From positions 42,109 to 106,108 of IMG/VR virus record IMGVR_UViG_3300027804_000050: a DNA stretch of 64,000 bases, one strand, 5' to 3'. The position numbers and the translations under genes are program-made. This stretch comes from a virus. A model generated the notes under the pieces. The model was not told the origin of the DNA. It saw nothing but the letters and a program-made list of their open reading frames with translations, and did no database searches. Shown here piece after piece: positions 45,323-60,951 of the stretch (the stretch's first letter is position 1; each line of letters begins with the position of its first letter).

Positions 45323-45581
45323 AGAATCCGAAGAGGATCGTCAGTTAGCTTTAGATGCTCATCGTTATTTCAAAGAGCGAGTAGAAGAAAATCCAGCAGA
45401 CAATGTGTCAAAATCATTGATGGTGGACTGTCTTAAAGTAGCTCAAACATCGAAGCAGTACACCGTAAGGGTAATTACTTTGATGACAAAGATGAACGAA
45501 GAGAATATGCCAGAAAGAACCAAGGCTAGTGGAAATACAACCTCTGTATTTTCAGAACTGGATAATATGGTAGATGAGTGA
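45246..45581 (+). CDS. Hypothetical helical protein
   Basis: GGAG RBS before ATG 45246; overlaps the ATPase start. Confidence 0.6.
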   Translation: MATTYIPKTPHFAQTKIQKIAKKLIEESEEDRQLALDAHRYFKERVEENPADNVSKSLMVDCLKVAQTSKQYTVRVITLMTKMNEENMPERTKASGNTTSVFSELDNMVDE

Positions 45582-47082
45582 TAATAACACATATAAGTTG
45601 GTTTGTGAAGGTATTGATCTAGTTATCCCAGTAAAAGTTTTATCCTTGAAAGAGGAGCAAGAACTTTATGCTCAGATACGAGAGAAAATATCTAAAACAG
45701 AAACAGCTTTTGTATTTCACGAGTATAAGGAATACTTAGCCAAGAAGCTAATCATTGGATATGAAAATCTCTTGGCTGAGTATTCCGATGGCGAAGAATC
45801 GGATACATATCAATTGTTGATAGCCAATATGTACATGGCTATCACAGTTGCATATCCTCCTTTGTCATTGGACTTCGTATGCACTGATTTAAATACTGAA
45901 AAGTTCATGCAAGCCACAGACTTGATGGAACCTTCTCAGTTTCTAAAGAACTTGGCAGCTAACCTCAAGACTAAGTTAGCCAAGGAAACAAAAAAGAAAA
46001 TCGTTAAGCATAAGATAGTTGGCCCACAGGTTTTGAAGACCAAGGACAACTTTAGTAAGCTTGAATCTCAAATAAAAAATAACATCATCGGCCAAGATCA
46101 CGCTGTTGATGTAGTAGTTAAGCATTTGAAACTAATGTCAACTGGCTTGACTCAGTTTTCTACATTGTTCTTTGTAGGCCCAACAGGTGTAGGCAAGACA
46201 GAACTATCCAAGATCATTGGAGAAAGATACAGTGGAAACTTTTTCAAAATTAACTGTGCGGAGTATGCAGGAGCACATGAATATGCCAAGTTGATAGGAT
46301 CTCCACCGGGCTATGTTGGTCATACTGACAGGAGTCTCCTCAAGGAGAAGGCTGAGATATCTAACAAGTGGGTATTCTTGTTTGATGAAATAGAGAAAGC
46401 TGATGGCAAATTCCAAGACTTCTTACTATCTTTGTTGGATGATGGAACTTGCACCGATAACATGGGCAATGTATTGGATTTCAGCAAATCTTTGTTTATC
46501 TTTACATCTAATCAAGGGGTATCTGAAATTAAGTATGCTTCGATAGGATTTGGAAAGAGCGAACCCAGCAAGAAAGCCATACAAAGCACTATCCTAGAAT
46601 CTGTAAAGAAAAAGTTTAGCCCTGAATTCATGAACCGAATTGATGATGTAGTTTTCTTCAATTCGTTAAGCAGGGACGATGTTAGAAGCATTGTTAAATT
46701 AAAACTAAAATCCTACCCTGTTGAAATAACTGAGCAGTTGGTAGATTATGTGATTGATAATTCCTATTCATATGAATATGGAGCTAGGAATGTAGCTAGG
46801 TACATTAAAAATAATCTAGCTACACTTGTAGCAGATAGTATTCTTGAGGATAGCACCAAGAAAAAGAAGCAGTACAAGTTAGTATTCCCAAGTGGTAGAC
46901 CTGAAGTTTTAAAATCACATGAAGAAAAAAAATCAACGCAAGAGAGTAACACGGGCGAGATACTGGAAGTTCATGTCGGGGGAGAGATTAAAACTTCACC
47001 CAGACATGAAACTGGAGGAGAAGCAACTGGTTCTACAGTGCGCCTTAAAGACGCTGAAAGGCCAATATCCATCAATAAATAG
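45574..47082 (+). CDS. Clp-family AAA+ ATPase (single ClpA/B D2-type module)
   Basis: IIGQDHAV, GPTGVGKT, KLIGSPPGYVG, FDEIEKA, FTSN, PEFMNRID and YGARN motifs. Confidence 0.9.
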   Translation: MSDNNTYKLVCEGIDLVIPVKVLSLKEEQELYAQIREKISKTETAFVFHEYKEYLAKKLIIGYENLLAEYSDGEESDTYQLLIANMYMAITVAYPPLSLDFVCTDLNTEKFMQATDLMEPSQFLKNLAANLKTKLAKETKKKIVKHKIVGPQVLKTKDNFSKLESQIKNNIIGQDHAVDVVVKHLKLMSTGLTQFSTLFFVGPTGVGKTELSKIIGERYSGNFFKINCAEYAGAHEYAKLIGSPPGYVGHTDRSLLKEKAEISNKWVFLFDEIEKADGKFQDFLLSLLDDGTCTDNMGNVLDFSKSLFIFTSNQGVSEIKYASIGFGKSEPSKKAIQSTILESVKKKFSPEFMNRIDDVVFFNSLSRDDVRSIVKLKLKSYPVEITEQLVDYVIDNSYSYEYGARNVARYIKNNLATLVADSILEDSTKKKKQYKLVFPSGRPEVLKSHEEKKSTQESNTGEILEVHVGGEIKTSPRHETGGEATGSTVRLKDAERPISINK

Positions 47083-47131
47083 ATTAAGTTTAATTGACTG
47101 GATATTGGATAATATTTAATTTTTTAAATAA

Positions 47132-47158
47132 AAAGCTCACAAAACAAGTGGGCTTTTT
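47132..47158 (+). terminator. Terminator
   Basis: AAAGCTCAC/GTGGGCTTT stem followed by T's. Confidence 0.7.
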
Positions 47159-47184
47159 ATCTATATAAAAGAGAGGTGTATTCT

Positions 47185-47334
47185 ATGGGATTAATTAAGA
47201 AGTATAGAGATGAGGCTAAAAAGGTAGAGACTGTCGTTGAGCCTGTTAAGCCTGTGGTTGAAGTTAAGATAGAGACTGAAACTAAGGAAGACAAGCCTAA
47301 AACTCTTACGAAGAAAACTAAAAAGGAAGAATGA
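47185..47334 (+). CDS. 49-aa Lys/Glu-rich protein (not in ORF track)
   Basis: GAGAGGTG RBS; MGLIKKYRDEAKK...KKEE; ATGA-coupled to the next gene. Confidence 0.6.
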   Translation: MGLIKKYRDEAKKVETVVEPVKPVVEVKIETETKEDKPKTLTKKTKKEE

Positions 47335-48341
47335 ATATGAATAATAATTACAGCTTAACAAACGAGTATTCTGAAAGATATGAAAAACTCATGGCTTCTT
47401 TATCAGAAGCCAAGGCTGATGCTGGGTTATCTCCAGAAGAAAAAGCAAAGAAAAGAGATGAAAGAAAGTTTGGAAAATCTTGGGAAGCAGAGGGCGGAAA
47501 ACCCAGTTCTACAGAGATGAGAAGAGCTACCCATGCTTCTAAGCGTAGAGAGGCAACAGGTAAAGAAACTCCTGAAGACCAAGCAAAGCGTGCAAAGGCA
47601 GTTGCAGAAAGACAAGCTGCTGGACAAAGCAAATCAGGAACTCAAGTTCAAAAGTTAACGGGACATCAAAGAGGTGGTAAAAAGAGATCTATAAAAGCTA
47701 AACTAGCTAAAGGTCCTTCTAAGCCACTCCCAATTCCTGACCATCATCAAAATTACTTTGATCTTTTAAATTCTTTGTTAGAGGGCAAAGCAGAAAGGAT
47801 GATACGAAGCGGTAACCCTGATAAAAGAATGAAAGGCTTAGTAAAATCGGGCAAAGAAATGACAAAAAGAGCTTTAAGAGGTGGAATGAATCCCGAAATA
47901 GCACGGACATCGTACTCAAGTAAGGTTTCACCTGAAGAGAGAGTAGAAGCCAGTCGTGAAATAGGAAGAGCCTCCGCTGAAAAAATGTTTAGTGGGAGGC
48001 TGGCCGCAGCCGGGATAAAGCCACCTGCCAAGAAAAGAGAAGATAGTTCAAACAGAACTTATAATGATCTTTTAAGTTCTTTGTTAGGTGAGGCTGGTAA
48101 GGCAGGTGCTCACTGGCAGGCTGGTGATACACCTGATAAGGATACTATAATTGTTAAAAAGATAGGGGACAGAGGTCCGGGCGATATAAAAAAGACAATT
48201 CCTATTCCAGCATCAAATAAGAAAAAGTTTGAAGCAGCCAAAAAAGCCTTCCCAACATTGTCTAGAGGTAGCTCTTCATCTACCGAAGCAGGAGGTGCAT
48301 TTGCTGGTTCAGCGCGAAGACCTAGACCAACTAGTTCCTAA
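47331..48341 (+). CDS. Basic multi-module protein, putative internal head polyprotein
   Basis: Three Y-x-x-L-(L/M)-x-S-L-x-(x)-E motifs separating basic segments. Confidence 0.6.
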   Translation: MNMNNNYSLTNEYSERYEKLMASLSEAKADAGLSPEEKAKKRDERKFGKSWEAEGGKPSSTEMRRATHASKRREATGKETPEDQAKRAKAVAERQAAGQSKSGTQVQKLTGHQRGGKKRSIKAKLAKGPSKPLPIPDHHQNYFDLLNSLLEGKAERMIRSGNPDKRMKGLVKSGKEMTKRALRGGMNPEIARTSYSSKVSPEERVEASREIGRASAEKMFSGRLAAAGIKPPAKKREDSSNRTYNDLLSSLLGEAGKAGAHWQAGDTPDKDTIIVKKIGDRGPGDIKKTIPIPASNKKKFEAAKKAFPTLSRGSSSSTEAGGAFAGSARRPRPTSS

Positions 48342-48391
48342 GACTGGTAAGAAAAAGTAATAGCTAATCTGCTAAGTGTAGAAACAGTAAC

Positions 48392-48421
48392 GAGGCCACC
48401 TTTTAGGTGGCCTCAGCTTTT
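48392..48421 (+). terminator. Terminator
   Basis: GAGGCCACCT/AGGTGGCCTC stem followed by T's. Confidence 0.75.
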
Positions 48422-48478
48422 AAAATGATTAAATTGTTTAAAAAGACCAAGAGTGTTCTATTATAGTCTGTAGAACAC

Positions 48479-48554
48479 GCGACTGTAGCTCAGGGGTTAG
48501 AGCAGAGTTCTTATAAAGCTAAGGTCGGTGGTTCAATTCCACCCAGTCGCACCA
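48479..48554 (+). tRNA. tRNA-Ile(UAU)
   Basis: GCGACTG/CAGTCGC acceptor stem, anticodon loop CTTATAA, GTTCAA T-loop, encoded CCA. Confidence 0.88.
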
Positions 48555-48558
48555 ATCA

Positions 48559-48610
48559 CAGCAGGAGTAGCCAACTCGTAAGACTGGCTGACAGAACTCA
48601 ACTCCTGCTG
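48559..48610 (+). ncRNA. Small structured element within the tRNA cluster
   Basis: 10-bp stem CAGCAGGAGT/ACTCCTGCTG enclosing an AGCCA/TGGCT stem with a GTAA tetraloop. Confidence 0.4.
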
Positions 48611-48624
48611 CTCTTTTAAAACAT

Positions 48625-48701
48625 GGCCTAGTAGTCCAATCGGCAGAGACAACAGACTTAAAATCTGTCAAGTGTGAGTTCGACCCTCACCTAGGCTACC
48701 A
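48625..48701 (+). tRNA. tRNA-Leu(UAA), short variable region
   Basis: ACAGA-CTTAAAA-TCTGT anticodon arm; encoded CCA. Confidence 0.9.
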
Positions 48702-48706
48702 TACAC

Positions 48707-48783
48707 GACCCCATAGCTTAATTGGAGAAAGCAATTGCCTTCTAAGCAATAGACTCCCTGTTCAAGTCAGGGTGGGGTTACCA
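48707..48783 (+). tRNA. tRNA-Arg(UCU)
   Basis: ATTGC-CTTCTAA-GCAAT anticodon arm; encoded CCA. Confidence 0.92.
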
Positions 48784-48788
48784 TACAT

Positions 48789-48864
48789 TCCCAGATAGCT
48801 CAATCGGTAGAGCATCTGACTGTTAATCAGAGGGTTGCAGGATCGTACCCTGCTCTGGGAGCCA
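48789..48864 (+). tRNA. tRNA-Asn(GUU)
   Basis: TCTGA-CTGTTAA-TCAGA anticodon arm; atypical T-loop; encoded CCA. Confidence 0.9.
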
Positions 48865-48865
48865 T

Positions 48866-48940
48866 GCGAGTATCGTATAAAGGCTATTACCTCAGCCTTC
48901 CAAGCTGAAGATAAGGGTTCGATTCCCTTTACTCGCTCCA
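48866..48940 (+). tRNA. tRNA-Gly(UCC)
   Basis: TCAGC-CTTCCAA-GCTGA anticodon arm; encoded CCA. Confidence 0.93.
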
Positions 48941-48945
48941 TACAC

Positions 48946-49021
48946 GAGTTCGTAGCTCAGTCGGCAGAGCAACTGGCTTTTAACCAGTAGGTCGAGGGTT
49001 CGACCCCCTCCGAACTCACCA
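48946..49021 (+). tRNA. tRNA-Lys(UUU)
   Basis: ACTGG-CTTTTAA-CCAGT anticodon arm; encoded CCA. Confidence 0.93.
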
Positions 49022-49054
49022 CTCAAATCCTAATCACCAAAAAGTCAAAGTCTT

Positions 49055-49399
49055 ATGCAAAAAGTAGAAATAGTAGATAACATGACGATGTTAAACATCG
49101 AGGAACTAGATTTTAAGATAAACCATTACCGTAACTTCGATAAAAAGAAGATAATCAAGAATGGCGGTTATACGGTCATATCTTTTGTACGAAATGGGTT
49201 GCCATTTTCGATCACCGCAAGATGTTCTGCGAGTGATACTTATGACAAAAGAAAGGGATTGTTCCAATGTTTTTCCAAGTATTGTGATAAATTCCTTGGC
49301 CGTGCAGTCTTTAATGTTTCTAGAGACTTTAGTGGAACCTATGTTGTGTATGTAGGTTCACCGAAGACATCCGAAACCGTAAGCAGAGGAGAGTTTTGA
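49055..49399 (+). CDS. Hypothetical protein
   Basis: GGYT...ARCS..D.Y.K.KG motif typical of small phage proteins. Confidence 0.6.
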   Translation: MQKVEIVDNMTMLNIEELDFKINHYRNFDKKKIIKNGGYTVISFVRNGLPFSITARCSASDTYDKRKGLFQCFSKYCDKFLGRAVFNVSRDFSGTYVVYVGSPKTSETVSRGEF

Positions 49400-49401
49400 A
49401 C

Positions 49402-49557
49402 ATGACTTGGTACGAGGTCACTATGGTAACTTCTGGTTGGGCCAAAAGGGTTGAGCTTATTAAAGCACCGACTCAATCGGAAGCAATTGAAATTGCCAAA
49501 AAAAGATGGCCTGACTGTGGTTGTAGCGGATGTAGAGTTATTGACATGAAATACTGA
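49402..49557 (+). CDS. 51-aa protein (not in ORF track)
   Basis: GGAG RBS; MTWYEV...IKAPTQSEAIEIAKKRWP. Confidence 0.6.
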   Translation: MTWYEVTMVTSGWAKRVELIKAPTQSEAIEIAKKRWPDCGCSGCRVIDMKY

Positions 49558-49565
49558 TAAAAAAG

Positions 49566-49593
49566 TTGACACGGCAGGATACTAAGGTATAAT
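49566..49593 (+). promoter_or_regulatory. Sigma70-type promoter
   Basis: TTGACA-16-TATAAT. Confidence 0.8.
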
Positions 49594-49605
49594 CATAGCA
49601 CGACC

Positions 49606-50007
49606 ATGCAAACCTTCCTACCCTACAGCGACTTCGAGGATTCCGCACGCTGCCTAGACTATCGTCGTCTAGGTAAACAACGAGTGGAAGCCATGCAGCT
49701 TCACAACATCCTTACCAATCGTACAACCACCAAGGGTTGGAGAAGTCATCCTGCACTTAAGATGTGGGAAGGCTATGCTCCAGCCCTTGCACATTATATG
49801 AATGTGTGTATTGACGAGTGGGTTCGTAGAGGCTACAATAACACTATGGAAAAGCGTGATGACCGTAACCTTGTGCTACCACCTTGGTTAGATGATACTC
49901 GCATCCATATCTCTCACCGTTCCAACTTGTTGCGTAAGGACGAGAAGTTCTATTCGCAGTATAATTGGAATCTCCCGTCCACCATGGAATACTACTGGCC
50001 TATCTGA
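49606..50007 (+). CDS. Pyrimidine-dimer DNA glycosylase (DenV/MSMEG_6728-like)
   Basis: MQTFLP, LD.RRLGKQRVE, HPA..MW.G, PPWL and SHRSNLLRKD motifs. Confidence 0.88.
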   Translation: MQTFLPYSDFEDSARCLDYRRLGKQRVEAMQLHNILTNRTTTKGWRSHPALKMWEGYAPALAHYMNVCIDEWVRRGYNNTMEKRDDRNLVLPPWLDDTRIHISHRSNLLRKDEKFYSQYNWNLPSTMEYYWPI

Positions 50008-50008
50008 A

Positions 50009-51022
50009 ATGCAAAACCACAAACTATCCGTATCTTACGACGATGTATTAATTGTTCCCAAGTACTCTAAGATTGGGAGCAGGGCTGAATGTGATCTTAC
50101 TCCTGAAATCAGGGTTGGGGATCATGTTGTAGTCAAACCCAAACTTGGCATCCCGATCATGTCTGCCAACATGGATACCATTACTGGTCTTGAAATGGCT
50201 AGAGCTATGGATCAGGTTTTGGGTTTAGGAATCCTGCATAGGAATATTTTTATTCCTGATGTAATCAAATTGAAAGAAGAACTTGGGTATGTGGTTGCCG
50301 CTGTAGGCTCGATCCATACTGATAAGAAGCGTATCGATACATATTTGGATCATAGCATCCCTATGTGCGTTGATATTGCTCATGGTCATTCCGAAAACAT
50401 GAGGAAGACTTTAGATTATATTTGTGAAAGGAACAATCAACTTTTGATTGCTGGAAATGTTTGTACTCCCAAGGGAGTTGAAGATCTATTCAACTGGGGA
50501 GCAGATATCGTCAAAGTTGGAGTTGGTGGAGGGTCTGCCTGCACTACTAGAATTAAGACTGGTTGTGGGTATCCTCAATTTGCAGCTTTGGAGAGCATTT
50601 GGGATGAATTCCAAGGAGAGATTCCCATTATTGCAGATGGGGGGATTAAAACCGCAGGAGATGCGGCGAAAGCTATTGCAATCGGAGCGGATTTCGTTAT
50701 GATTGGCGGTATGCTCGCAGGAACTGACAAGACCCCTTTCTGGAATCCTAATACCAGTTTCACGACCTTCCGTGGAATGGCCTCCATGTCCGCTAAGGCA
50801 GATACTGGATTGCCTCTCGTACATGAGGAGGGTATTTCTACTCAAGTTAAAACCAAGCCTGAGGGTAGCACCCTGTCCGTTGTCCGTGGCCTTTGCGATG
50901 GAATTAGATCTGCAATGAGTTATTGTGGATCTAAGAACATGAAGAGTTTCCGTGGAGAACAGAACTTTGTCTACATCAGCCAAGCAACTCAAAAAGAAAA
51001 CCATGCCCACATCCAACTATGA
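50009..51022 (+). CDS. IMP dehydrogenase/GMP reductase family, no CBS domains
   Basis: YDDVLIVP, SANMDT, DIAHGHS, AGNV, GGGSACTTR, IIADGG and FRGMAS motifs. Confidence 0.92.
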   Translation: MQNHKLSVSYDDVLIVPKYSKIGSRAECDLTPEIRVGDHVVVKPKLGIPIMSANMDTITGLEMARAMDQVLGLGILHRNIFIPDVIKLKEELGYVVAAVGSIHTDKKRIDTYLDHSIPMCVDIAHGHSENMRKTLDYICERNNQLLIAGNVCTPKGVEDLFNWGADIVKVGVGGGSACTTRIKTGCGYPQFAALESIWDEFQGEIPIIADGGIKTAGDAAKAIAIGADFVMIGGMLAGTDKTPFWNPNTSFTTFRGMASMSAKADTGLPLVHEEGISTQVKTKPEGSTLSVVRGLCDGIRSAMSYCGSKNMKSFRGEQNFVYISQATQKENHAHIQL

Positions 51023-51257
51023 AAGGATGATTGAAAATATGAAACAAGATATGGTCAATCACCCTCAACACTATACCCAAGGTAAGTTTGAGGTTATCGA
51101 TATCATTGAAGATCAAAAACTTTGCTATCATCTCGGCAATGTTGTTAAGTATGTGTTGCGAGCGCAGCATAAAGGAAAGCAACTGGAAGATTTGTCCAAA
51201 GCCAAGTGGTATCTGGAACGCAAAATTCAACTCCTCCAAAAGGAACAAGCTAAGTGA
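51003..51257 (+). CDS. DUF3310 protein
   Basis: DMVNHP.HY, GNVVKYV.RA..K and EDL.KA.WYL motifs. Confidence 0.88.
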   Translation: MPTSNYERMIENMKQDMVNHPQHYTQGKFEVIDIIEDQKLCYHLGNVVKYVLRAQHKGKQLEDLSKAKWYLERKIQLLQKEQAK

Positions 51258-51850
51258 AGACTACCCTAACTTCTGAACAATGGGATGCCATCGAACAAAA
51301 GTATGGCAACCTGATGTACACGATCTGCAAGCACATTTCTGGGGATCACACCTTGTGTTCCGTTGAAGATTTGCGCTCTGATCTAAACATCATTGCAATC
51401 GAAGCTGTGGAGACTTTCCGCAAGAAGAATACACAAAGCAGCTTTGAGGAATTTTTCAATAGCAAGGGCTTTGATCGATACATCAAATCCTGCCTTTGGA
51501 ATTACAAGGCTAATCGAGGTTCTAAGATCACCAAGAAGAAAGTCTTGTATTCCAACTTGAGCATTGAATCCAACTTTGATGATTCGGAGTCGTTTGCAGA
51601 TCTAGATCTGAACTTCCGAGACAAGAGTTCTGCCAGTTACATTGAAATGAATGTTGACCTTGAGGAGTTCATGTGCAATATGTCGGATTACCAGAAACAT
51701 TTGGTGTCCGTGATTGTTGAAAACCCTGACCTAATTAAGCCTAACGGAAAGATTAATCGGTTGGAATTGTCGGGAATCGAAAACAAGCATTGGACGGTTA
51801 TTGACAAGGAGATCGGTGATCTTTCCAAGCGGATTGGAGTACCTCTATGA
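51254..51850 (+). CDS. Second phage sigma-70-like factor (putative middle sigma)
   Basis: KY..LM..I, EDL..D....IEAVE.F and F..YIK..LWN region-2 pattern; helical C-terminus. Confidence 0.6.
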   Translation: MKTTLTSEQWDAIEQKYGNLMYTICKHISGDHTLCSVEDLRSDLNIIAIEAVETFRKKNTQSSFEEFFNSKGFDRYIKSCLWNYKANRGSKITKKKVLYSNLSIESNFDDSESFADLDLNFRDKSSASYIEMNVDLEEFMCNMSDYQKHLVSVIVENPDLIKPNGKINRLELSGIENKHWTVIDKEIGDLSKRIGVPL

Positions 51851-52194
51851 ATATTTACATCTCTGGCCCGATTACTAATTACAAGAATGCAGATACTAAC
51901 TTCAAGGAAGCTGAAGCCTTGATGAGGAAAATGTATCCTAATGCCAAGATCTACAATCCCATCAACATCCCCACCCCAAAATACACTCAAGATGATTGGG
52001 GAACAGAAGGGGTTTGGTCGTATTATATGCATGAAAGCATCAAGTTGATGATGGAATGTGACACGATCTATCTTTTAAATGGATGGAGTTCTAGTAAAGG
52101 GGCTACCATTGAATTTAATCTAGCTTGGGCACTAGATATGACAATCTTGTACGAAACTGACATTAAAAAGATGAGGAATGATGAACCCCAATAA
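51847..52194 (+). CDS. DUF4406 (nucleoside deoxyribosyltransferase-like)
   Basis: IYISGPIT, NP, W..YM and CD.IYLL.GW..SKGA.IE motifs. Confidence 0.88.
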   Translation: MNIYISGPITNYKNADTNFKEAEALMRKMYPNAKIYNPINIPTPKYTQDDWGTEGVWSYYMHESIKLMMECDTIYLLNGWSSSKGATIEFNLAWALDMTILYETDIKKMRNDEPQ

Positions 52195-52381
52195 CCAAAA
52201 AGTCAAAGTTTCAATGACCTTTGAATGGGAGTTCGACCATAAACAATGGTGTGAACTAAAGTCTTGGTCTGAGACTCGGGAAGAGATTGTGAATAGGATG
52301 CGTTTTGATGGTATAGACGCATTCTATCATCTAAACCAAATGTGCCGACCAAAATGGAATTTAGAAACAAAACAGGAATGA
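52178..52381 (+). CDS. Hypothetical protein
   Basis: Coupled ORF. Confidence 0.5.
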   Translation: MMNPNNQKVKVSMTFEWEFDHKQWCELKSWSETREEIVNRMRFDGIDAFYHLNQMCRPKWNLETKQE

Positions 52382-52587
52382 TTCCTGTTTTCAATCTTCC
52401 GAGTCAGATAACTATGATTTGGCAAGATGATAGCTGGAATTACTTTTGGTTGTATGATATCAAAGATAACTGGGTTATTGTATCACCCAGAAAAGATCCA
52501 GATGGAAATGAACCTAAGACTTACGAACCAATGTTAATCCCCATGAGTAACATTGTATCTATAATTTTCACGGAGAAACTAGGATGA
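52378..52587 (+). CDS. Hypothetical protein
   Basis: ATGA-coupled ORF. Confidence 0.5.
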   Translation: MIPVFNLPSQITMIWQDDSWNYFWLYDIKDNWVIVSPRKDPDGNEPKTYEPMLIPMSNIVSIIFTEKLG

Positions 52588-52856
52588 ATTCAGAATTTAG
52601 TTGGTGGATTGCAATCGCATTGTTTTTCACCTATGTTGTAATTGATTACTTGTATGCCCTGTACTATCTTCTTGTTGCAAAGAGAGATGCATTCAGGGCT
52701 GGCCTTGTTGCAGCAGGTATGTATGTACTATTAACATATGGAGTGCTTGCATACACTAAGAATCCTTGGTATATTGTAAGTATTGCGTTAGGTTCTTTTG
52801 TAGGAACCTATGTGGCAGTTAAATATTTTCCCGAAAAATTGAGTGACAAGGGTTAA
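52584..52856 (+). CDS. Three-TM membrane protein
   Basis: Three hydrophobic helices; G.FVGTY motif. Confidence 0.7.
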   Translation: MNSEFSWWIAIALFFTYVVIDYLYALYYLLVAKRDAFRAGLVAAGMYVLLTYGVLAYTKNPWYIVSIALGSFVGTYVAVKYFPEKLSDKG

Positions 52857-53142
52857 GACCTTGTCTATAATAGATGGCATGAACGCACAATCTAATTTTA
52901 AGAAGATCTGGCAAGTGGAGATTACCTTCAATGACACGAAGCCTCCCCACTTGTATCTAATGACTAACTTTACCAATAACATTGATGCTGCGGTTGACCA
53001 ACTCAAGCGTCAAGTTAAGTGGTTCAAGCCTGAAACCATCAAGTCGGCCAAGGCAGTCCAGTATGTTCTGGAAGCTGTTGACGAGGTTGACTATACTGAT
53101 TCCCTGCACACCCTGACCGTTACACCTATCGAAGGAGAATGA
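52843..53142 (+). CDS. Hypothetical protein
   Basis: ORF track. Confidence 0.55.
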   Translation: MTRVKTLSIIDGMNAQSNFKKIWQVEITFNDTKPPHLYLMTNFTNNIDAAVDQLKRQVKWFKPETIKSAKAVQYVLEAVDEVDYTDSLHTLTVTPIEGE

Positions 53143-53567
53143 ATATGTTTAAGACCATGATCGCTACTGTTGCCCTCGCCTCTATCGCCCAAACGCAAGT
53201 TGGGAATATCTTCTGCACCTCGTATCCCAATAACACGGGACAAGTTGCACATATGAGCTTCTGCGATGTACAACTGACTTGCATGAATCTCACCAATGCT
53301 ACGCCTAACGGCTATGCACAACTTATCTACGGAAGCACGGCTTTTAACAGCCCCTTCGGTAATGGTCACTTGTGTGTGAATCCTTTGGGAGGTTTCTATC
53401 GTGTTGGTAGTCCTGTGCCTGTTAGTGCATTGGGAACTGCTTCGGTTAGCCTGCCACAAGAGATTTTTGCAACTGGGGCTGTGACCCACTTCCAATGGAT
53501 GTATAGGGATATTCAAAGCACGGGATACACATTCAATACTAGCAACGCCCTGCGTTGGCCTCTGTGA
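53139..53567 (+). CDS. Secreted stand-alone planctomycete-type C-terminal domain protein
   Basis: Signal peptide, then FC.S.PN.TG..A, PFGNG.LC, G.F.R, G...HFQW.YRD and FNTSNAL. Confidence 0.65.
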   Translation: MNMFKTMIATVALASIAQTQVGNIFCTSYPNNTGQVAHMSFCDVQLTCMNLTNATPNGYAQLIYGSTAFNSPFGNGHLCVNPLGGFYRVGSPVPVSALGTASVSLPQEIFATGAVTHFQWMYRDIQSTGYTFNTSNALRWPL

Positions 53568-53583
53568 AAATCAAGGAGAGCAA

Positions 53584-53811
53584 ATGGCTAATCAAGACCC
53601 CCCGTTTGATAAGGTAGCGTATCACGCGAGTGCCTTGCACGCCACTTGCAAGTACATTATTGAGAATACGAAAGTTAAGCCTAACTATGAAGCCACCGTC
53701 AACCATTATCACGCTCTGACCTTGGCGACTTTGGAGATGCTGGAGCGTATGCAAGCCTCCATCGACGAGTACAATAACTGGAATATCTACGGTGAGAACT
53801 GGGAAGATTGA
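53584..53811 (+). CDS. Hypothetical protein
   Basis: AGGAG RBS. Confidence 0.6.
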   Translation: MANQDPPFDKVAYHASALHATCKYIIENTKVKPNYEATVNHYHALTLATLEMLERMQASIDEYNNWNIYGENWED

Positions 53812-53812
53812 T

Positions 53813-54028
53813 ATGACACTTAACTACGAGCGTTATAATTCTGTTAAATCTACTCGTAAGTTCTTGTTAGCACTTATGAGTCCATCCGAAACACCTAGAG
53901 TTCCTCGTGCTATTCGAACAGAGGCTAGGCGATTGCTAAAACACTACCCAGAAGAATATCATATGGATACGGTAGCAAAGGAATGTCCTACTATTTTTGG
54001 TAAAGACTGGAGAGATGATTACAAATGA
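53813..54028 (+). CDS. BPSL0761-like protein
   Basis: ER...V..TR.FL..L...TPRVP..IR.EARRLLKHYP. Confidence 0.75.
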   Translation: MTLNYERYNSVKSTRKFLLALMSPSETPRVPRAIRTEARRLLKHYPEEYHMDTVAKECPTIFGKDWRDDYK

Positions 54029-55041
54029 CACAAATTAAAGTTACCGCAACAGGCTACTCCGTAAACGATGGAGTAGAAGTCAAGATACAAGTCCCCCTCG
54101 CTGCTGCTATTCGCAAGGCAGGGGAGTTTACAGATCAAACTGTAATTACGATTCATGGACAGCTTTTAACTGGCTTGGATATTGGTGGCCCCGCAGGTTA
54201 TCAAAATAAAAGTCAATGCGCGTTCTGGAATCGTCCGATTGATAATCTAATTATCCAAGGAGCAGATGCCAATGCAGCAATTGGTAACTTGCGTTTTTGG
54301 GATACTTTGAATGGGGTTAACTCTATTACCATTCAGAACTTAACGATTATCAATGATACAAATGAATTCTCGCCCCTCCGCACGGGAATGAATGAAGTGC
54401 ATGGATATATCAAGATTATCAATTGCAAGTTTAAGGGTACAGGAAATAACTGGCTTGGCCGTGGAATGAAATGGGGAATCCGTGGACATGGCCCTGCTCG
54501 TTGGTTTATACAAAACTGTGACTTTGAACCTTGCCAAGAGCATAGCATTTATATTGATAATCCTCAGGGCGATACAGTAATTAATAATTGCAAAGGTATT
54601 GGCAATGGTCGTACTTTCATGCAAATTACAAATCGTCCTACATCTGGGCCTTCTCAATTCGGGAATATCATAGTCTCGAATTGCGTATGTAATGATATCA
54701 ACCAAGAAGGTGGTGGAGGTTCTGATTACACATTTGTGGGCTGTACGGGTAAGCTAGAAGTGAAAGATTGTAGTTCCTTTAATACTACAAATGGAGCTAT
54801 GGTTCTTTGGACTGATACCACAAATGGAACTTATGTTACAGGTCGTAACTTTAGTTTTAATGAAGTATTAATTGAGAGATTCCATGCAGAATCCAACAGA
54901 GCTACTCGTCCGATGGTGGCTATCTCTGGTGTGAGAAGTGGAGTTCTCAAACAAATAAATACTTATGGTGGCCCAATTAAGTATCGTCTAGGTGGAGATT
55001 ATGGTGGCCCTCGTCCTAATGGAAGCATTGAAATACTATGA
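54025..55041 (+). CDS. Right-handed beta-helix (pectin lyase-fold) protein
   Basis: Repeating I.I.NC.F rungs; EHSIYIDN and GRTFMQ motifs. Confidence 0.75.
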   Translation: MTQIKVTATGYSVNDGVEVKIQVPLAAAIRKAGEFTDQTVITIHGQLLTGLDIGGPAGYQNKSQCAFWNRPIDNLIIQGADANAAIGNLRFWDTLNGVNSITIQNLTIINDTNEFSPLRTGMNEVHGYIKIINCKFKGTGNNWLGRGMKWGIRGHGPARWFIQNCDFEPCQEHSIYIDNPQGDTVINNCKGIGNGRTFMQITNRPTSGPSQFGNIIVSNCVCNDINQEGGGGSDYTFVGCTGKLEVKDCSSFNTTNGAMVLWTDTTNGTYVTGRNFSFNEVLIERFHAESNRATRPMVAISGVRSGVLKQINTYGGPIKYRLGGDYGGPRPNGSIEIL

Positions 55042-55285
55042 AAGCTGTTGGAAAATTTATGAATAAAAAGAAACTAAGAAAAAAATGGATTGATTTCATG
55101 ACCTTGGCTGTGGGAGCGGTCTTGTTGATGACCTTGTTGCTTTTAAATGGGTTTTTGTTCGCAACTCTGATGCAAACTTTATGATTGAAATAATTTGTTG
55201 GATCACATATGGCATCTTAATGTTGTGGTTTTTGTATGTGGGAGTTAAGATGTATGATAAAAAAGATAAAAATCCCGAATGATGC

Positions 55286-55314
55286 GTGACACAAGCCGTT
55301 TGATCGGTTATAAT
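55286..55314 (+). promoter_or_regulatory. GTGAC-type promoter
   Basis: GTGACA-17-TATAAT with TCGGT before the -10; ATG 7 nt downstream. Confidence 0.75.
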
Positions 55315-55321
55315 AGGCATC

Positions 55322-55510
55322 ATGGAAATCAGCAAACTGATCAGGGAGCTTGAGCGCATCCGCATCAAGCAGGGCGACGAGTTCAAGGTCAAGCTGCGTA
55401 TCGATGACGATATGCAGTTTGGGGAAGAGCTTGGAGACTTCGATGTGGAAGTCCGCAATGATGGTGTTATTCTTGTGGCTGAAATCACGGGCAAGATCTG
55501 GGAGGACTGA
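55322..55510 (+). CDS. Hypothetical early protein, leaderless
   Basis: Starts 7 nt after the -10 box; GC-richer codons. Confidence 0.65.
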   Translation: MEISKLIRELERIRIKQGDEFKVKLRIDDDMQFGEELGDFDVEVRNDGVILVAEITGKIWED

Positions 55511-55513
55511 CCA

Positions 55514-55801
55514 ATGAAAACGATCAAAAACATTATTAATTACTGGTGGAACGCGGCTGGGTGTGTCGTTTTGTTTGAAACTTTTCTTGGCTTAAGTTTT
55601 TTTGTACTAATTCCCTGTATGATGTATCCCCAGAAAGTACATTGTATGATTTCTCACGATGAAAGTAGGAAATTCGAGGTTGAAAATCATGTAGAAGGCA
55701 GCGAGTTGCGTTACATTACAGTAGAATGTGAAATTTGTAATTTTGAAAAACAATCCGGCCAATTTTGCGATAAAGTTAAGTTCATCGGGGACGAACAATG
55801 A
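55514..55801 (+). CDS. Membrane-anchored hypothetical protein
   Basis: N-terminal TM segment; CxxC. Confidence 0.5.
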   Translation: MKTIKNIINYWWNAAGCVVLFETFLGLSFFVLIPCMMYPQKVHCMISHDESRKFEVENHVEGSELRYITVECEICNFEKQSGQFCDKVKFIGDEQ

Positions 55802-55977
55802 AAACTTATCGTGTCCCCATCACTTGGAAAATGTGTTCTGACTACTACATTAAAGCTGACTCGGAAGCAGAAGCAATTAAGATTGCTAACCGTCTTCCGT
55901 TGCCTGAACACGGTGAGTACCTGACCGATAGCTTTGAGATTGATAAGGATGATATCTCAGAAGAGGAAGACCAATAA
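55798..55977 (+). CDS. 59-aa DpnD/PcfM-like small protein (not in ORF track)
   Basis: MKTYRVPITW...IKADSEAEAIKIA. Confidence 0.6.
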   Translation: MKTYRVPITWKMCSDYYIKADSEAEAIKIANRLPLPEHGEYLTDSFEIDKDDISEEEDQ

Positions 55978-56092
55978 AACTACGAGATAAAATCTTGTGG
56001 GTAATCAGGGGTGGACTAGTTATCTTTTTGATACTAGTCCTGCCCTTGATTGTAATTAAAATGTTAATCACACACCTATGGATCACATCACT

Positions 56093-56320
56093 ATGAATTA
56101 TCAATGGAAAAAGCTAGACGACCAATACCTTGAAGGCGAAGTTATCAAGAATAATAACTTGGTAGCAGAGGTAGTTGCATTTAAAGAATACGGGCAGACA
56201 TATGTAGTTTATATGTATAAAGATAGTAAGTATCTTGGATCTAGAGGTTATCATGGAGAGAAGTTAGCCAAGGAGATGGCTATTGAGTATTTGGAAGGTA
56301 AAGACCTTCTGAACGACTAA
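56093..56320 (+). CDS. Hypothetical protein
   Basis: ORF track. Confidence 0.55.
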   Translation: MNYQWKKLDDQYLEGEVIKNNNLVAEVVAFKEYGQTYVVYMYKDSKYLGSRGYHGEKLAKEMAIEYLEGKDLLND

Positions 56321-56339
56321 CTTATTTTTGAGAAAAAGC

Positions 56340-56368
56340 GTGACTGAGGCTGTGTCGTCGGTTATAAT
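56340..56368 (+). promoter_or_regulatory. GTGAC-type promoter
   Basis: GTGACT-17-TATAAT, then ACCTACC-ATG. Confidence 0.75.
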
Positions 56369-56375
56369 ACCTACC

Positions 56376-56786
56376 ATGAGCAACAAAGGATACGAAATTA
56401 AGCCCAAGGCTGACCTTCAGGGTGCTAACCTTCGGTATGCTGACCTTCGGCGTGCTGACCTTCGGCATTCTGACCTTCGGCATTCTGACCTTCAGGGTAT
56501 TAACCTTCGGTATGCTGACCTTCGAGGTGCTGACCTTCAGGGTGCTAAACTTCGGTATGCTGACCTTCGGTATGCTGACCTTCGAGGTGCTGACCTTGAG
56601 GGTGCTTACCTTCAGGGTGCTGACCTTCAGGGTGCTAAACTTCAGGGTGCTAAACTTCAGGGTGCTGACCTTCAAGGTGCTAACCTTCTAGGTGCTGACC
56701 TTGGGGATACTAACCTTGAGGATGCTAACCTTGAGGGTGCTAAGATCTACGGCTATACCCTTACAAAAAACCAAGAAAACGAGTGA
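56376..56786 (+). CDS. Pentapeptide repeat protein
   Basis: About 22 A(D/N)Lxx repeats encoded by 15-bp tandem repeats. Confidence 0.92.
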   Translation: MSNKGYEIKPKADLQGANLRYADLRRADLRHSDLRHSDLQGINLRYADLRGADLQGAKLRYADLRYADLRGADLEGAYLQGADLQGAKLQGAKLQGADLQGANLLGADLGDTNLEDANLEGAKIYGYTLTKNQENE

Positions 56787-56811
56787 CCCAAGACCTCTGA
56801 TCGGTTATAAT
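56783..56811 (+). promoter_or_regulatory. GTGAC-type promoter
   Basis: GTGACC-17-TATAAT, then ACCTACC-ATG. Confidence 0.75.
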
Positions 56812-56818
56812 ACCTACC

Positions 56819-57085
56819 ATGAGCAACAACAACTACGAAAACACCTACGATATCGAGTTCTGTGTCTCTACTCCAGCCTTTTTTCGTGTTCAAGCACACA
56901 CCATGGAAGAGGCTATGAAGATTGCGCACGAACGCTTCCTGCATTCGGGGTTGGTTCTTTTCACGCCAGCCAATGCGAACACAGATACCGTTATGATCCG
57001 CAAGAGAGAAGATATCTGTGATCTTGGTGCCTCCAACGAAGACATGATCAGAGAGTACAATTACATCAAAACAAAGGCTAAGTGA
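56819..57085 (+). CDS. Small protein, paralog 1
   Basis: TYDIEF.V...RVQA.T.EEA..IA..RF...A.N.DM..EY.Y. Confidence 0.7.
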   Translation: MSNNNYENTYDIEFCVSTPAFFRVQAHTMEEAMKIAHERFLHSGLVLFTPANANTDTVMIRKREDICDLGASNEDMIREYNYIKTKAK

Positions 57086-57087
57086 CC

Positions 57088-57342
57088 ATGAGCAAGTACA
57101 CCTACGACATCGAGTTCGCAGTCCAGTCTGAGATTTATATGCGCGTCCAAGCAGATAGCGCAGAAGAAGCTAAGAGGATTGCAAAAGACCGTTTCAAAAA
57201 GACGGACGAGTTTACCATTAAATCCAGTAACATGGATAGGGAAATTATTGGTGTTCGTTTGAAAGAAGAACCCTGTAATCCCGAAGCTACCAATCAAGAT
57301 ATGGTACACGAGTATAAGTACGATATGGGGAAGGATAAGTGA
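57088..57342 (+). CDS. Small protein, paralog 2
   Basis: Same motif as 56819..57085. Confidence 0.7.
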   Translation: MSKYTYDIEFAVQSEIYMRVQADSAEEAKRIAKDRFKKTDEFTIKSSNMDREIIGVRLKEEPCNPEATNQDMVHEYKYDMGKDK

Positions 57343-57344
57343 CC

Positions 57345-57530
57345 ATGGAATACTGCGACAACTGTACAGATAAGCATAAAACCAAGAACATGGTTCCCAT
57401 CCCTGAACTTAAATTTAATGTAGCAAGTGCAAACAAGGGAGAATCTGCAATCTTATGTAAGCGGTGCTATGATGAATACAAGCGCGATCCTTCGTGGATC
57501 GAACCGTACCCTTATCAACAAGAAGGATGA
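57345..57530 (+). CDS. Small zinc-finger protein
   Basis: CDNC...CKRC. Confidence 0.6.
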   Translation: MEYCDNCTDKHKTKNMVPIPELKFNVASANKGESAILCKRCYDEYKRDPSWIEPYPYQQEG

Positions 57531-57685
57531 AGAACAATGAAGGTTAGAATTAAAAAGCAACGAGATCTCTATCAACCGGAATATGCAGTAGAAGTTTTAT
57601 ATAAATACAGCACATGGACAGTCGTAGCTACAACCTATAATCTAAAACTAGCCAATAAGATTAAAAAGCTAATTGAGGTGGAACA

Positions 57686-57859
57686 ATGACAAAGGTTTAT
57701 GTTTTAATGAATTGGCAAAGGGGAGTATGGGTATCTATTCAAGCCATTGTAGGAGTTTTCGCTACAATGGAAGCAGCAGAGAAACAAATGCAAGAATATA
57801 AAGAAGATGGTTTAGATGTTGCAGGAATGCACATCGAAGAATACGAGGTGAACCAATGA
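57686..57859 (+). CDS. 57-aa protein (not in ORF track)
   Basis: GAGGTG RBS; MTKVYVL...IVGVFAT.EAAE. Confidence 0.55.
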   Translation: MTKVYVLMNWQRGVWVSIQAIVGVFATMEAAEKQMQEYKEDGLDVAGMHIEEYEVNQ

Positions 57860-58419
57860 AACAAAATAACTGCCAAGGCTGTGGATGTATCAATGAGGAT
57901 CAATGTATCTGTATGAAAGAAGAATATACTATGCATCATCCAGCAGGTGTAGACATTACATTTAATAGCTGGGATGAATATACTACCTATCATCCAGCAG
58001 GTGTAAACATTACATTCAATAGCTGGGATGAATATAATAAGTACATGGTATATGAGAATAAAGTAAGAAAAGAATGCTGTGACCAAGCCTATGAGAACGG
58101 CTTCTTCGATGGCTACAACAAGGCCAAAGGCGTTGAAACCGATCAGGATAACTCGGTTATGTACAGCGATCCATACAACGATGGATACGACGAGGGCTAT
58201 AAGAATGCCAAGAGTGATATTAATCATGAACTGGGGGAGCTTAAAATTAAGTTAGCTGATGCCCTCCAAGCTCAAGCATTCTGGCGTGATAAATCTAATA
58301 AGGATAAAATTCAAAGTAAGTTGGAACTACCTAATCCCATTGAAGTAAAAGTTAAAGTGAATAATGTGGACGAATTCATTAAGATTTGGGATGTGTTGTA
58401 CCCTAAGGAGGAGCAATGA
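57856..58419 (+). CDS. Hypothetical protein with an 18-aa tandem duplication
   Basis: Two copies of YT..HPAGV.ITFNSWDE; GY..GY repeats. Confidence 0.6.
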   Translation: MKQNNCQGCGCINEDQCICMKEEYTMHHPAGVDITFNSWDEYTTYHPAGVNITFNSWDEYNKYMVYENKVRKECCDQAYENGFFDGYNKAKGVETDQDNSVMYSDPYNDGYDEGYKNAKSDINHELGELKIKLADALQAQAFWRDKSNKDKIQSKLELPNPIEVKVKVNNVDEFIKIWDVLYPKEEQ

Positions 58420-58697
58420 AGTACAGAATCACGCACCCCGACGAATTTAATTGGTGTATCGAAGAATGGCAAGAAGGCGGCAAGGAAATCGAGAAAGGTA
58501 AGTTCCAAGGGGAATTTACCAAAGCCAAATGGAAGCCATCCAACGCTTTCTATCCAACTTTAAAAGACGCTTTAACGGCTTTGATCAACAAAGCAGCAGG
58601 CGACGCTTTAATCACCAAAGAAGCAAATAACATCTTGGAAGCAATTAAGATCGCAGAATCTAAGGTATTAAATACAATGCTTCCAGACAATAAGTAA
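58416..58697 (+). CDS. Hypothetical protein
   Basis: AGGAGG RBS. Confidence 0.6.
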   Translation: MKYRITHPDEFNWCIEEWQEGGKEIEKGKFQGEFTKAKWKPSNAFYPTLKDALTALINKAAGDALITKEANNILEAIKIAESKVLNTMLPDNK

Positions 58698-58727
58698 CAT
58701 AGGCTAGATAGAGAGGAGGAAAGAACA

Positions 58728-59150
58728 ATGATAGAAGATAATCATATATTTAACCTGCTCTCTAAGAATAATATACAAGAAGTAGATCTAGGATACGCCA
58801 AATACAAGTTAATTATAACCGATAATATAGGAGATAACTTAACTTGGGGATATACTAATACGGGTACACATACAATCTATTTGCATTCATCAATGCATAA
58901 TCAACAAGCAAGAGAAGTCCTTCTGCACGAGATTACGCATTGCATATTAGAAGTAATCGGATACACTTCTAATGATGACGAGAAATCATTCAAAGACAAT
59001 AATGAAGATATGACTACCAAGATGTCTAGAGGATTCCTACTAGTCTTAAATCTTAATCCTCTACTTATGTCCCTGTTGATATCTTCTAATCAACAAGCAA
59101 TACCAACTTCTGTGTTCTTGTTTGAAGGTAAAAACATATTGAAATCATAA
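58728..59150 (+). CDS. HExxH metallopeptidase-fold protein
   Basis: G.T...THTIYL...EVLLHEITHCI...E. Confidence 0.75.
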   Translation: MIEDNHIFNLLSKNNIQEVDLGYAKYKLIITDNIGDNLTWGYTNTGTHTIYLHSSMHNQQAREVLLHEITHCILEVIGYTSNDDEKSFKDNNEDMTTKMSRGFLLVLNLNPLLMSLLISSNQQAIPTSVFLFEGKNILKS

Positions 59151-59490
59151 TTAAATGCCAAAAAGTCAAAGTTTATGTATTGTATAAAAGTACCCCCCGT
59201 CATCAAAAAAAATGAATAAAATCCAAGTATCATTTAAGATACGGGGGTGGGGAGGGGTACTAAAAAGTCAAAGTTTATTGTTTTTATTGGATTTTTGCTA
59301 AAAAGTCAAAGTTTGCTTTACCCATAAAAAACCTAACACACACAAAAATCTCTGAATTATTTCTAAGTTTTACAATCTAATGTGAACTTTGGCAAGTCTC
59401 ACATACAACATATAGTGGTATGTTTTGATTTGATTTGCCAAAATCCCATATAAATACAACCCCCCACCACTATATGTTGTGTTCGGGGGA

Positions 59491-59543
59491 TAAAATAGCT
59501 TAGATCTTGTTTGAAACTAGCTCAAACAAGATCTAAGCTATTT
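59491..59543. repeat. Perfect 23-bp inverted repeat (bidirectional terminator or cruciform)
   Basis: AAAATAGCTTAGATCTTGTTTGA-7 nt-TCAAACAAGATCTAAGCTATTTT. Confidence 0.85.
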
Positions 59544-59720
59544 TTATTTGAACTACCGAGTAAAACAAGATAGTTCCATTTAGAACTTGTAAGATCTACT
59601 TACAAGTTGTTTAGATATAGATCGGAAGTTACAGAGTTGCAACTAGGTTTAGAGTTTCCCCATCCAACACTAACAACTCTTGTTTCATCTGTAACTCTGT
59701 AACTTCCTTTCCATGCCCCT

Positions 59721-59748
59721 ATCTTACCACAATTCCCCCCATTGTCAA
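59721..59748 (-). promoter_or_regulatory. Sigma70-type promoter firing into the non-coding region
   Basis: TTGACA-16-TAAGAT with extended TG. Confidence 0.7.
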
Positions 59749-59783
59749 TAGCTCCTAAACTTATTTTCAAAGATTTTCTGAGC

Positions 59784-59867
59784 TTTTCGTAAGTGCTTGT
59801 AGAATAAGAGGTTACATCAAGAGGGGGGGCCCCATAAACCTAAAGTGTTAGTTTGCAATGGGTTACG
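59784..59867 (+). repeat. Cassette element copy 1
   Basis: TTTTCGTAAGTGCTTGTAGAATAAGAGGTTACATCAA...GGGCCC plus a second TAA-N4-TT..AA-N4-TTA box. Confidence 0.9.
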
Positions 59868-59906
59868 CTCATTTCAAATAATGTGGGGAAACTGTGATTC
59901 GGGGGC

Positions 59907-59934
59907 TTGACAAGGGGTCGAAGTGTGGTACAAT
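59907..59934 (+). promoter_or_regulatory. Sigma70-type early promoter
   Basis: TTGACA-16-TACAAT; ATG 6 nt downstream. Confidence 0.85.
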
Positions 59935-59940
59935 ATGGGC

Positions 59941-60741: not shown

Positions 60742-60765
60742 CCTTCCAACAATTGCAACCTCTTG

Positions 60766-60798
60766 AAGGGAGCGGGGCAACCCGCTCCCTTTCCTTTT
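60766..60798 (+). terminator. Terminator
   Basis: AAGGGAGCGGG-GCAA-CCCGCTCCCTT followed by T's. Confidence 0.9.
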
Positions 60799-60852
60799 CT
60801 AGGGGAGGGAGTTTACTGGTAGCTGTCAAGAAAAAAACCAAAAATTTTTAAT

Positions 60853-60902
60853 GGGGCCCCGTGCGTTGATATAACTTCTTATTCTACAACTACTTACGAA
60901 AA
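60853..60902 (-). repeat. Cassette element copy 2 (inverted)
   Basis: Reverse complement reads TTTTCGTAAGTAGTTGTAGAATAAGAAGTTATATCAA...GGGGCCCC. Confidence 0.9.
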
Positions 60903-60917
60903 TTTGAATTTTGGGGG

Positions 60918-60945
60918 TTGACTATGGGCTGAAATGTAGTACAAT
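60918..60945 (+). promoter_or_regulatory. Sigma70-type early promoter
   Basis: TTGACT-16-TACAAT; ATG 6 nt downstream. Confidence 0.8.
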
Positions 60946-60951
60946 ATGCAC

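Follow-up and report, generated by a model that had tools for sequence, protein, structure and literature searches.

A stand-alone phage copy of the C-terminal domain of planctomycete secreted proteins: a candidate competitor in the envelope of the infected host

The stretch of DNA considered here (the window, 64,000 nucleotides) forms the final 64 kb of an IMG/VR record of 106,108 bp (IMGVR_UViG_3300027804_000050), estimated to be 95% complete. The record corresponds to a T4-like phage, with 30-34% identity between its capsid protein and cyanophage gp23. Within the window, a small gene on the forward strand encodes a signal peptide followed by a single domain, as the initial annotation had described. 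The features relevant to this gene are collected in Table 1.

Table 1. Features of the window related to the domain gene and to the assignment of its host
Feature	Coordinates	Strand	Details
Domain-protein ORF	53139..53567	+	142 aa; probably 140 aa from ATG 53145
Shine-Dalgarno-like AAGGAG	53132..53137	+	Read from the sequence; 7 nt upstream of ATG 53145
Predicted Sec signal peptide	53139..53192	+	Residues 1-18, cleavage after ASIA; inspection and homolog alignment, pLDDT ~54 for residues 1-20
Beta-sandwich domain	53205..53564	+	Residues 23-142; same family as the C-terminal tails of secreted proteins in planctomycetes
Sigma-70-like promoter match	52843..52871	+	GTGACA-N17-TATAAT, 11/12; consensus match only
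Putative five-gene unit	52879..55041	+	52879-53142, domain gene, 53584-53811, 53792-54028, beta-helix gene 54025-55041
Terminator-like hairpin	55106..55121	+	After the beta-helix gene; consensus match only
tRNA-Lys(UUU)	48946..49021	+	53-nt core only in Planctomycetota genomes; independent host-lineage link

The second ATG of the ORF, at 53145, is probably the true start of the gene, because the AAGGAG element lies 7 nt from it and 1 nt from the ATG at 53139, and because a 98% identical homolog (P0002) was called from the matching Met. The homologs of the protein (98%, 87% and 59% identical) are 139-140 aa long. By inspection, the N-terminus (MNMFKTMIATVALASIA followed by QTQ) presents a basic n-region, a hydrophobic h-region and a c-region with a small residue at position -1, and in the alignment the cleavage sites of the homologs are of the classical AxA type (AFA before G, AYA before Q and AFA before S). 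Judged in this way, the protein is a predicted substrate of the Sec pathway. Since no lipobox precedes the invariant C26, it is not a lipoprotein. The ORF, the N-terminus, the cleavage sites of the homologs and the structure model thus agree with the earlier claim that a signal peptide is joined directly to a domain of ~120 aa.

The sequence motif originally quoted for this domain is genuine and conserved. Across 28 homologs, C26, G76, C79, Q119 and R123 are invariant, and N31, G34, P72, G74, D124, F132 and N133 are conserved in at least 90%; the motifs of the domain are PNxTG, PFGNGxLC, FQxxYRD and FNTS. The two invariant cysteines fit an extracytoplasmic location of the domain. Two of the conserved segments, PNSTG and FNTS, are also N-x-S/T sequons, to which the phage copy adds NLT and NAT. 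No family in Pfam, NCBIfam or PHROG matches the phage protein, even at E<=10, and tblastn with it finds no match among 50,697 phage records. HMMER, on the other hand, retrieves 260 relatives at E<=1e-3 among 1.84 billion representatives, with a best value of 8.8e-46, so that the motif stands far above chance; the family profile (alignment A2) matches the phage gene at 1.6e-50.

From the perspective of structure, the AlphaFold model (pLDDT 87.3, pTM 0.79) presents residues 23-140 as an all-beta fold of ~11 strands and residues 1-20 as unstructured. Foldseek searches of the PDB and BFVD with the domain model return no match at E<1e-3, and the best hit of a wide VIA search (Z 8.0) is to generic Ig/FnIII sandwiches, at background level. 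As modelled, the fold is therefore a generic Ig/FnIII-type sandwich without an informative structural neighbour. Ig-like domains are common on the structural proteins of tailed phages, and a fold of this type (best Z ~8) would also suit a virion decoration or adhesion protein, carried on the capsid or the tail. Such a function is highly improbable here: the conserved cleavable signal peptide directs the protein out of the cytoplasm, where virions are assembled, the gene lies far from the structural module, amid small non-structural genes, and neither PHROG nor BFVD offers a structural-protein match.

A homology search, suggested initially as a check, shows that the carriers of the domain are Planctomycetota and that it occupies the C-terminus of their proteins. 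Long cellular proteins match the phage domain at 1e-13 to 1e-4. Among the 260 HMMER relatives, domain boundaries could be delimited in 149, and in all 149 the domain ends within 0-3 residues of the C-terminus; the phage protein itself stops 1-2 residues past the last column conserved in the family. According to their architecture, these 149 relatives can be divided into those with a long N-terminal part (94), those with a short one (17) and those in which the domain stands alone (38). A crude rule detects signal-like N-termini in about two thirds of the full-length precursors. Pfam assigns FG-GAP, Kelch and other propellers, laminin-G, DUF642 and beta-helix domains to the N-terminal parts. In the ESM Atlas, a structure search recovers this tail (TM 0.75-0.83) from FG-GAP proteins, esterases, an extracellular nuclease and peptidases of the M10 and thermolysin types, and the nearest Atlas clusters of the domain are all from Planctomycetota. 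The cargo thus includes hydrolases, adhesin-like propellers and lectin-like modules. The tail of the cellular carriers has no name in NCBIfam. The likeness to a domain ending many secreted proteins of Planctomycetota, which had been put forward initially, is thus real, as HMMER, the Atlas and the genome scans described below agree. The description of the phage domain as devoid of cargo requires a nuance: the phage copy does stand alone, without a cargo module, but this minority architecture is shared by the 38 stand-alone representatives of the family and is not a phage invention.

The family is confined almost entirely to one group of bacteria, in which it is greatly expanded. When 185,579 species genomes are scanned for FQ[FCY]WYRD[PI], 567 stretches are confirmed, and the best 80 of these 567 belong almost exclusively to metagenome-assembled genomes (MAGs) of Planctomycetota from the sea, lakes and the Black Sea. 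Five genomes contain from 82 to more than 150 scored copies each, with up to 251 candidates. Across the phylum, 8 of 121 evenly sampled Planctomycetota species carry the domain at E<=1e-8, and four of them show the expansion. Within the class of one of the domain-rich genomes (G001) the distribution is bimodal, with strong matches in 29 of 61 genomes (70-353 candidates each) and none in the other 32. A domain-rich genome of this uncultured planctomycete lineage thus encodes some 70-350 secreted proteins that end in the domain. The RpoB of G001 is 57-62% identical alike to that of Planctomycetia, Brocadiia and Phycisphaerae, and among the matches listed it reaches 77-80% identity only with MAGs; these listed matches include no record of Saltatorellus or OM190, the groups that the initial annotation had named. 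Given the equal distance to three classes, the RpoB sequences fit a separate deep branch of planctomycetes. One further genome (G005, JBLIMI01, loci L014/L080) is a MAG of 3.7 Mb with 92 scored domain copies that is labelled Candidatus Paceibacteria; this label looks like a case of mis-binning or mis-classification.

What characterises sorting tags, such as the C-terminal domains (CTDs) of the type IX secretion system (T9SS), LPXTG and PEP-CTERM, is that they occur strictly at the C-terminus of a large and diverse set of secreted proteins. From its position, copy number and cargo, and by analogy with these systems, we infer that the domain serves the host as a common C-terminal module for sorting or surface anchoring. 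Its nearest counterpart is the T9SS CTD of Bacteroidota (TIGR04183 / Por_Secre_tail). Both are C-terminal beta-sandwiches of restricted lineage distribution, found on dozens to hundreds of Sec-exported hydrolases and adhesins; the T9SS CTD comprises ~100 residues, while the planctomycete tail extends to ~120 aa and contains a pair of invariant cysteines. Membership of the type IX system was considered and rejected. The T9SS CTD profiles (TIGR04183 / PF18962) do not match the phage domain even at E<=10, TIGR04183 is found in none of five domain-rich genomes (a search run without a positive control), and SprA (TIGR04189) is absent from all 61 genomes of the planctomycete class, whereas it is detected in 3/3 Bacteroidota controls with 2000-2800 bits. 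The planctomycete tail domain, in turn, was not found in these three control genomes. The T9SS-like trait that is present, a beta-sandwich ending a large and varied secretome, is thus a resemblance in possible working.

A second type of C-terminal signal is short and tripartite. These signals (LPXTG/sortase, PEP-CTERM/exosortase, GlyGly-CTERM and MYXO-CTERM) consist of 25-35 residues with a motif, a transmembrane helix and a basic tail (PMC1569441, PMC3237569, PMC11980579). Like the tail domain, these short signals are strictly C-terminal, serve many secreted proteins in a many-to-one manner and follow lineage-restricted, bimodal phyletic patterns. Unlike them, the tail domain is folded, is 120 residues long and ends in a beta-strand (...VTFxP; ...RWPL in the phage). 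The C-terminus of the A2 alignment shows neither a hydrophobic helix nor a cluster of Arg or Lys, and a short tripartite signal of the PEP-CTERM type was rejected because the tail lacks the succession of motif, helix and basic cluster.

On the phage side, a profile search of the genome finds one copy of the domain. Two viral contigs (L082/L083) are syntenic with the phage over ~16 kb, with neighbour genes 50-85% identical, and carry a domain homolog in the same slot with 59% identity. The comparison of the two domain genes gives a dN of 0.36 and a dS of ~2.1, near saturation, and hence a dN/dS of ~0.2, which indicates purifying selection, and the dN of the domain gene is the highest among the neighbours tested. 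All family-invariant residues are retained in the phage copies. One protein variant occurs on 80 contigs, the longest of 104,543 bp. In a quick maximum-likelihood tree the phage protein forms a clade (SH-aLRT 97) with P0003-P0007. These proteins, like those of the sister group (P0038, P0049 and P0085; support 87), stand alone, and neither group includes a cargo-bearing form. Members of the phage clade lie on contigs of 57-160 kb and have diverged to 40-59% identity; for P0005-P0007 and for the three sister sequences, viral or cellular origin is deduced from contig sizes. As the sequences stand, the phage copy belongs to a stand-alone clade of old divergence.

The same tree bears on a further explanation, according to which the gene is a captured host gene (a moron) that retains the role of the cellular stand-alone forms, for instance as a glycan-binding or structural envelope protein, and has no specific effect on sorting. 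The combination of a signal peptide and the domain is common in the family (38/149), the sister group is stand-alone as well, and the conserved polar residues N31, R88, Q119, R123, D124 and N133 could form a ligand site. Since cellular stand-alone forms exist, some of which may be viral or fragments, the domain may normally also serve some function when free of cargo. A passive capture is nevertheless judged unlikely. No cellular ortholog of the phage clade is found in the 61 genomes of the class, where the closest sequences share 33-42% identity with the phage protein and form the ends of ORFs of 458-1308 aa, and the divergence of the clade on phage-sized contigs, together with its fixed syntenic slot, argues for a phage-specific, selected role. 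The free domain also occurs in an unrelated phage contig of 67% GC (L084, IMGVR_UViG_3300013120_000169), which has a portal gene at 17-1033 and a stand-alone domain at 7893-8372. This copy is identical to P0008, seen on a 126-kb contig, and occupies a separate branch of the tree; the contig is probably from a GC-matched phage of the same host group. The presence of the domain in an unrelated phage and on a separate branch makes the use of the free tail domain by phages look recurrent.

The restriction of the family to one lineage supports the planctomycete host that had been proposed initially, and a second, independent line of evidence comes from a tRNA. Linkage through a tRNA had been named earlier as one way of checking the host, and the match surfaced during a search for spacer-like matches. 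The phage tRNA-Lys is 91-92% identical to the tRNA-Lys of several domain-rich genomes. Positions 6-58 are the same except for two bases, and elsewhere the two differ by compensatory replacements of GC by AT in the acceptor and T stems. The 53-nt core, with N at the two differing positions, is found in 20 of the 185,579 species genomes, all of them Planctomycetota MAGs, from lakes, rivers, soil and sludge, with Lake Mendota and Danish sludge among the sources. The five of these genomes that were tested for the domain are all domain-rich, with 102-243 candidates.

The two N positions were chosen with the match in view, and BLAST controls at E<=1e-15 were run for that reason. At this threshold a tRNA-Lys match is found in 26 of the 61 genomes of the class, in 7 of 121 Planctomycetota sampled across the phylum (three of them domain-poor, at 85-86%), in 6 of 201 Bacteroidota (84-85% identity), and in none of 151 Verrucomicrobiota or 301 Pseudomonadota. 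The 84-86% tier, which Bacteroidota and domain-poor Planctomycetota also reach, is therefore not diagnostic and was rejected as host evidence. By contrast, the 88-92% tier comprises 11 genomes, all domain-rich (Fisher p=8e-5, with both traits following phylogeny), and none of the Verrucomicrobiota, Pseudomonadota or Bacteroidota sampled; the host inference uses this tier and the exact-core scan only. For comparison, the best match in the phage database is 84% identical and the tRNA-Lys of E. coli 82%. A comparison of window positions 44001-64000 with 101 genomes of the order of the lineage returned no CRISPR-spacer-like match, the only matches being to tRNAs.

Not all the evidence points in the same direction. 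The phage has 37% GC, against 55-75% in the domain-bearing genomes, an unusually wide gap that speaks against a planctomycete host, and its capsid protein is closest to that of cyanophages. The match to the tRNA is inexact, at 67 of 76 bases, and the lower identity tier extends to some Bacteroidota. These observations would be accounted for if the phage now infected a low-GC bacterium of another phylum and had obtained both the domain gene and the tRNA by earlier horizontal transfer. This scenario is improbable for several reasons. A secreted domain restricted to one lineage would have no obvious use elsewhere, yet purifying selection maintains it in at least two phage species; among the 185,579 species, the tRNA core is confined to Planctomycetota; and the compensatory changes in the stems are those expected from a long stay in an AT-rich phage. 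The difference in GC also has a precedent in the marine cyanomyoviruses, AT-rich T4-like phages with tRNAs for A/U-ending codons that infect GC-rich hosts. The six tRNAs of the phage (48479-49021: Ile-TAT, Leu-TAA, Arg-TCT, Asn-GTT, Gly-TCC and Lys-TTT) all decode A/U-ending codons. A GC-rich host would use such codons rarely, and an AT-rich phage infecting it is expected to carry tRNAs of this kind. From these comparisons of sequences, the phage most probably infects a member of the domain-rich planctomycete lineage. The domain and the tRNA are both shared-gene evidence, however, and could reflect past rather than present hosts. Two other possible signs of foreign or host origin were discarded: the GC3 of the domain gene (0.49) lies at only z=+1.2 genome-wide, within a block that is GC3-rich throughout, and the most GC-rich gene of the phage, at 59923-60741, matches assorted proteobacterial MAGs at 31-33%.

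The domain gene is located among small non-structural genes, and the order and content of the five-gene unit in Table 1 are conserved in the syntenic contigs. The sigma-70-like site upstream may drive the run of genes that includes the domain gene, although the promoter- and terminator-like consensus matches of the region do not exceed in total those of shuffled sequence. This setting recalls the classic exclusion factors of phages, which are small exported proteins encoded in non-structural regions (T4 Imm and Sp, T5 Llp). The phage could accordingly use the host tag as a means of delivering a protein to the surface for superinfection exclusion or receptor masking, in which case the host pathway would be exploited and not jammed. 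The small exported product, the position of its gene among small genes in a GC3-rich non-structural block, a dN above that of the neighbours tested, as expected of a gene for surface interactions, and stand-alone copies in two unrelated phages are all in keeping with such a role. It is rather unlikely all the same. Together with Cor, these exclusion proteins resemble the domain protein in being small, signal-peptide-bearing, non-structural phage proteins of the infected-cell envelope, but there is no homology to them (no PHROG match), nor any receptor to point to. Furthermore, conservation falls on the family-invariant residues and not on a new binding surface, which exclusion leaves unexplained. 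The domain protein copies a host domain family, and this implies that it mimics an element used by the host for sorting or anchoring and is not a dedicated receptor binder.

The reading preferred here, to which a probability of about 45% is assigned, is that the phage protein competes for, or occupies, the partner of the host tail domain and thereby alters the surface of the infected cell, a function suggested by the sequences and by analogy with known sorting systems. A single partner would recognise the tail domain of the host proteins; this could be a machinery for export or attachment, or a ligand in the cell envelope. The phage protein would pass through Sec into the envelope of the infected planctomycete and engage this partner while delivering no cargo. 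With the partner occupied or contested, display or secretion by the infected cell would change; as an example, surface proteins that serve as phage receptors or traps might be removed or masked. The expansion of the domain in the lineage, its strict C-terminal position, the conserved slot in the phages, purifying selection and the host link through the tRNA all favour competition. A more far-reaching version, regarded as doubtful, is that the lineage possesses an undescribed C-terminal beta-sandwich sorting or attachment pathway, a functional analogue of T9SS with 70-350 substrates per genome, which at least two unrelated phages jam or hijack with minimal substrates devoid of cargo. In that case the phage protein would be the earliest example of a virus mimicking a bacterial sorting tag, and this phage would be among the first linked to the lineage.

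A cargo-less sorting or anchoring tag encoded by a phage would represent a new viral route to reshaping the host surface. A search of the literature found no description of the domain, of a comparable planctomycete sorting system or of a comparable planctomycete phage, and no phage with a free sorting domain, whether a T9SS CTD devoid of cargo or another. C-terminal sorting domains and small exported phage proteins are already known; the family, its scale in the lineage and its adoption by phages are new. The results also provide a lineage-level host assignment for a group of ~106-kb T4-like phages that is widespread in metagenomes, as judged from the variant on 80 contigs. The uncurated domain family tags secreted proteins in about half of the genomes of one planctomycete class, and its bimodal presence and absence lends itself to phylogenetic profiling for the partner machinery. 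Once purified, the mature protein of 124 residues (residues 19-142) would be a ready-made probe for the host partner.

Regarding the neighbouring genes, the initial annotation had grouped the domain gene with those at 42421, 54025 and 63370 in a surface-manipulation set. This grouping holds in part: the products of 42421 and 63370 have export-type N-termini, while that of 54025 does not carry a signal peptide, and none of the three shows a planctomycete link. The beta-helix protein encoded at 54025 is tied to the domain gene only by the possible shared transcription unit, and it was rejected as a planctomycete link since its nearest Atlas clusters come from mixed phyla. The gene at 42421-43194 (+) encodes a protein of 257 aa whose signal peptide is clear (MKKYLLAALALLLVAVPIIYSQA) and which no Pfam family matches. 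Its only four relatives, with 58-97% identity, lie on short metagenome contigs, and it was likewise discarded as a link, given its phage relatives and the lack of matches in five candidate host genomes. The gene at 63370-63786 (-) encodes a destabilase or i-type lysozyme (PF05497, 1.4e-10), for which the Pfam scan gives no planctomycete link; its N-terminus (MQKILRYAIVLLVMVAC) resembles a signal peptide or a lipobox, and the product may be an exported or lipid-anchored endolysin.

Additional features of the region concern its expression and composition. A second GTGACA-N17-TATAAT site (11/12) is present at 55286-55314, and this site and the one upstream of the five-gene unit each end 7-8 nt before an ATG (55322 and 52879, respectively), a spacing that hints at leaderless or very short-leader transcripts. 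The block of small genes at ~51000-64000, which continues into positions 1-2300 of the genome and thus wraps the ends of the record, has a GC3 of 0.45-0.69 against a genome mean of 0.335, and may be an early region with more host-like codons. The highest GC3 of the genome (0.69) is that of the gene at 59923-60741 (+), which encodes a DUF932 protein whose relatives, at 31-33% identity, lie in mobile regions of proteobacterial MAGs. Finally, the same block includes a gene for a pentapeptide-repeat protein at 56328-56786 (+) (PF00805, 1.6e-59), whose product may be an inhibitor of the DNA-mimic type.
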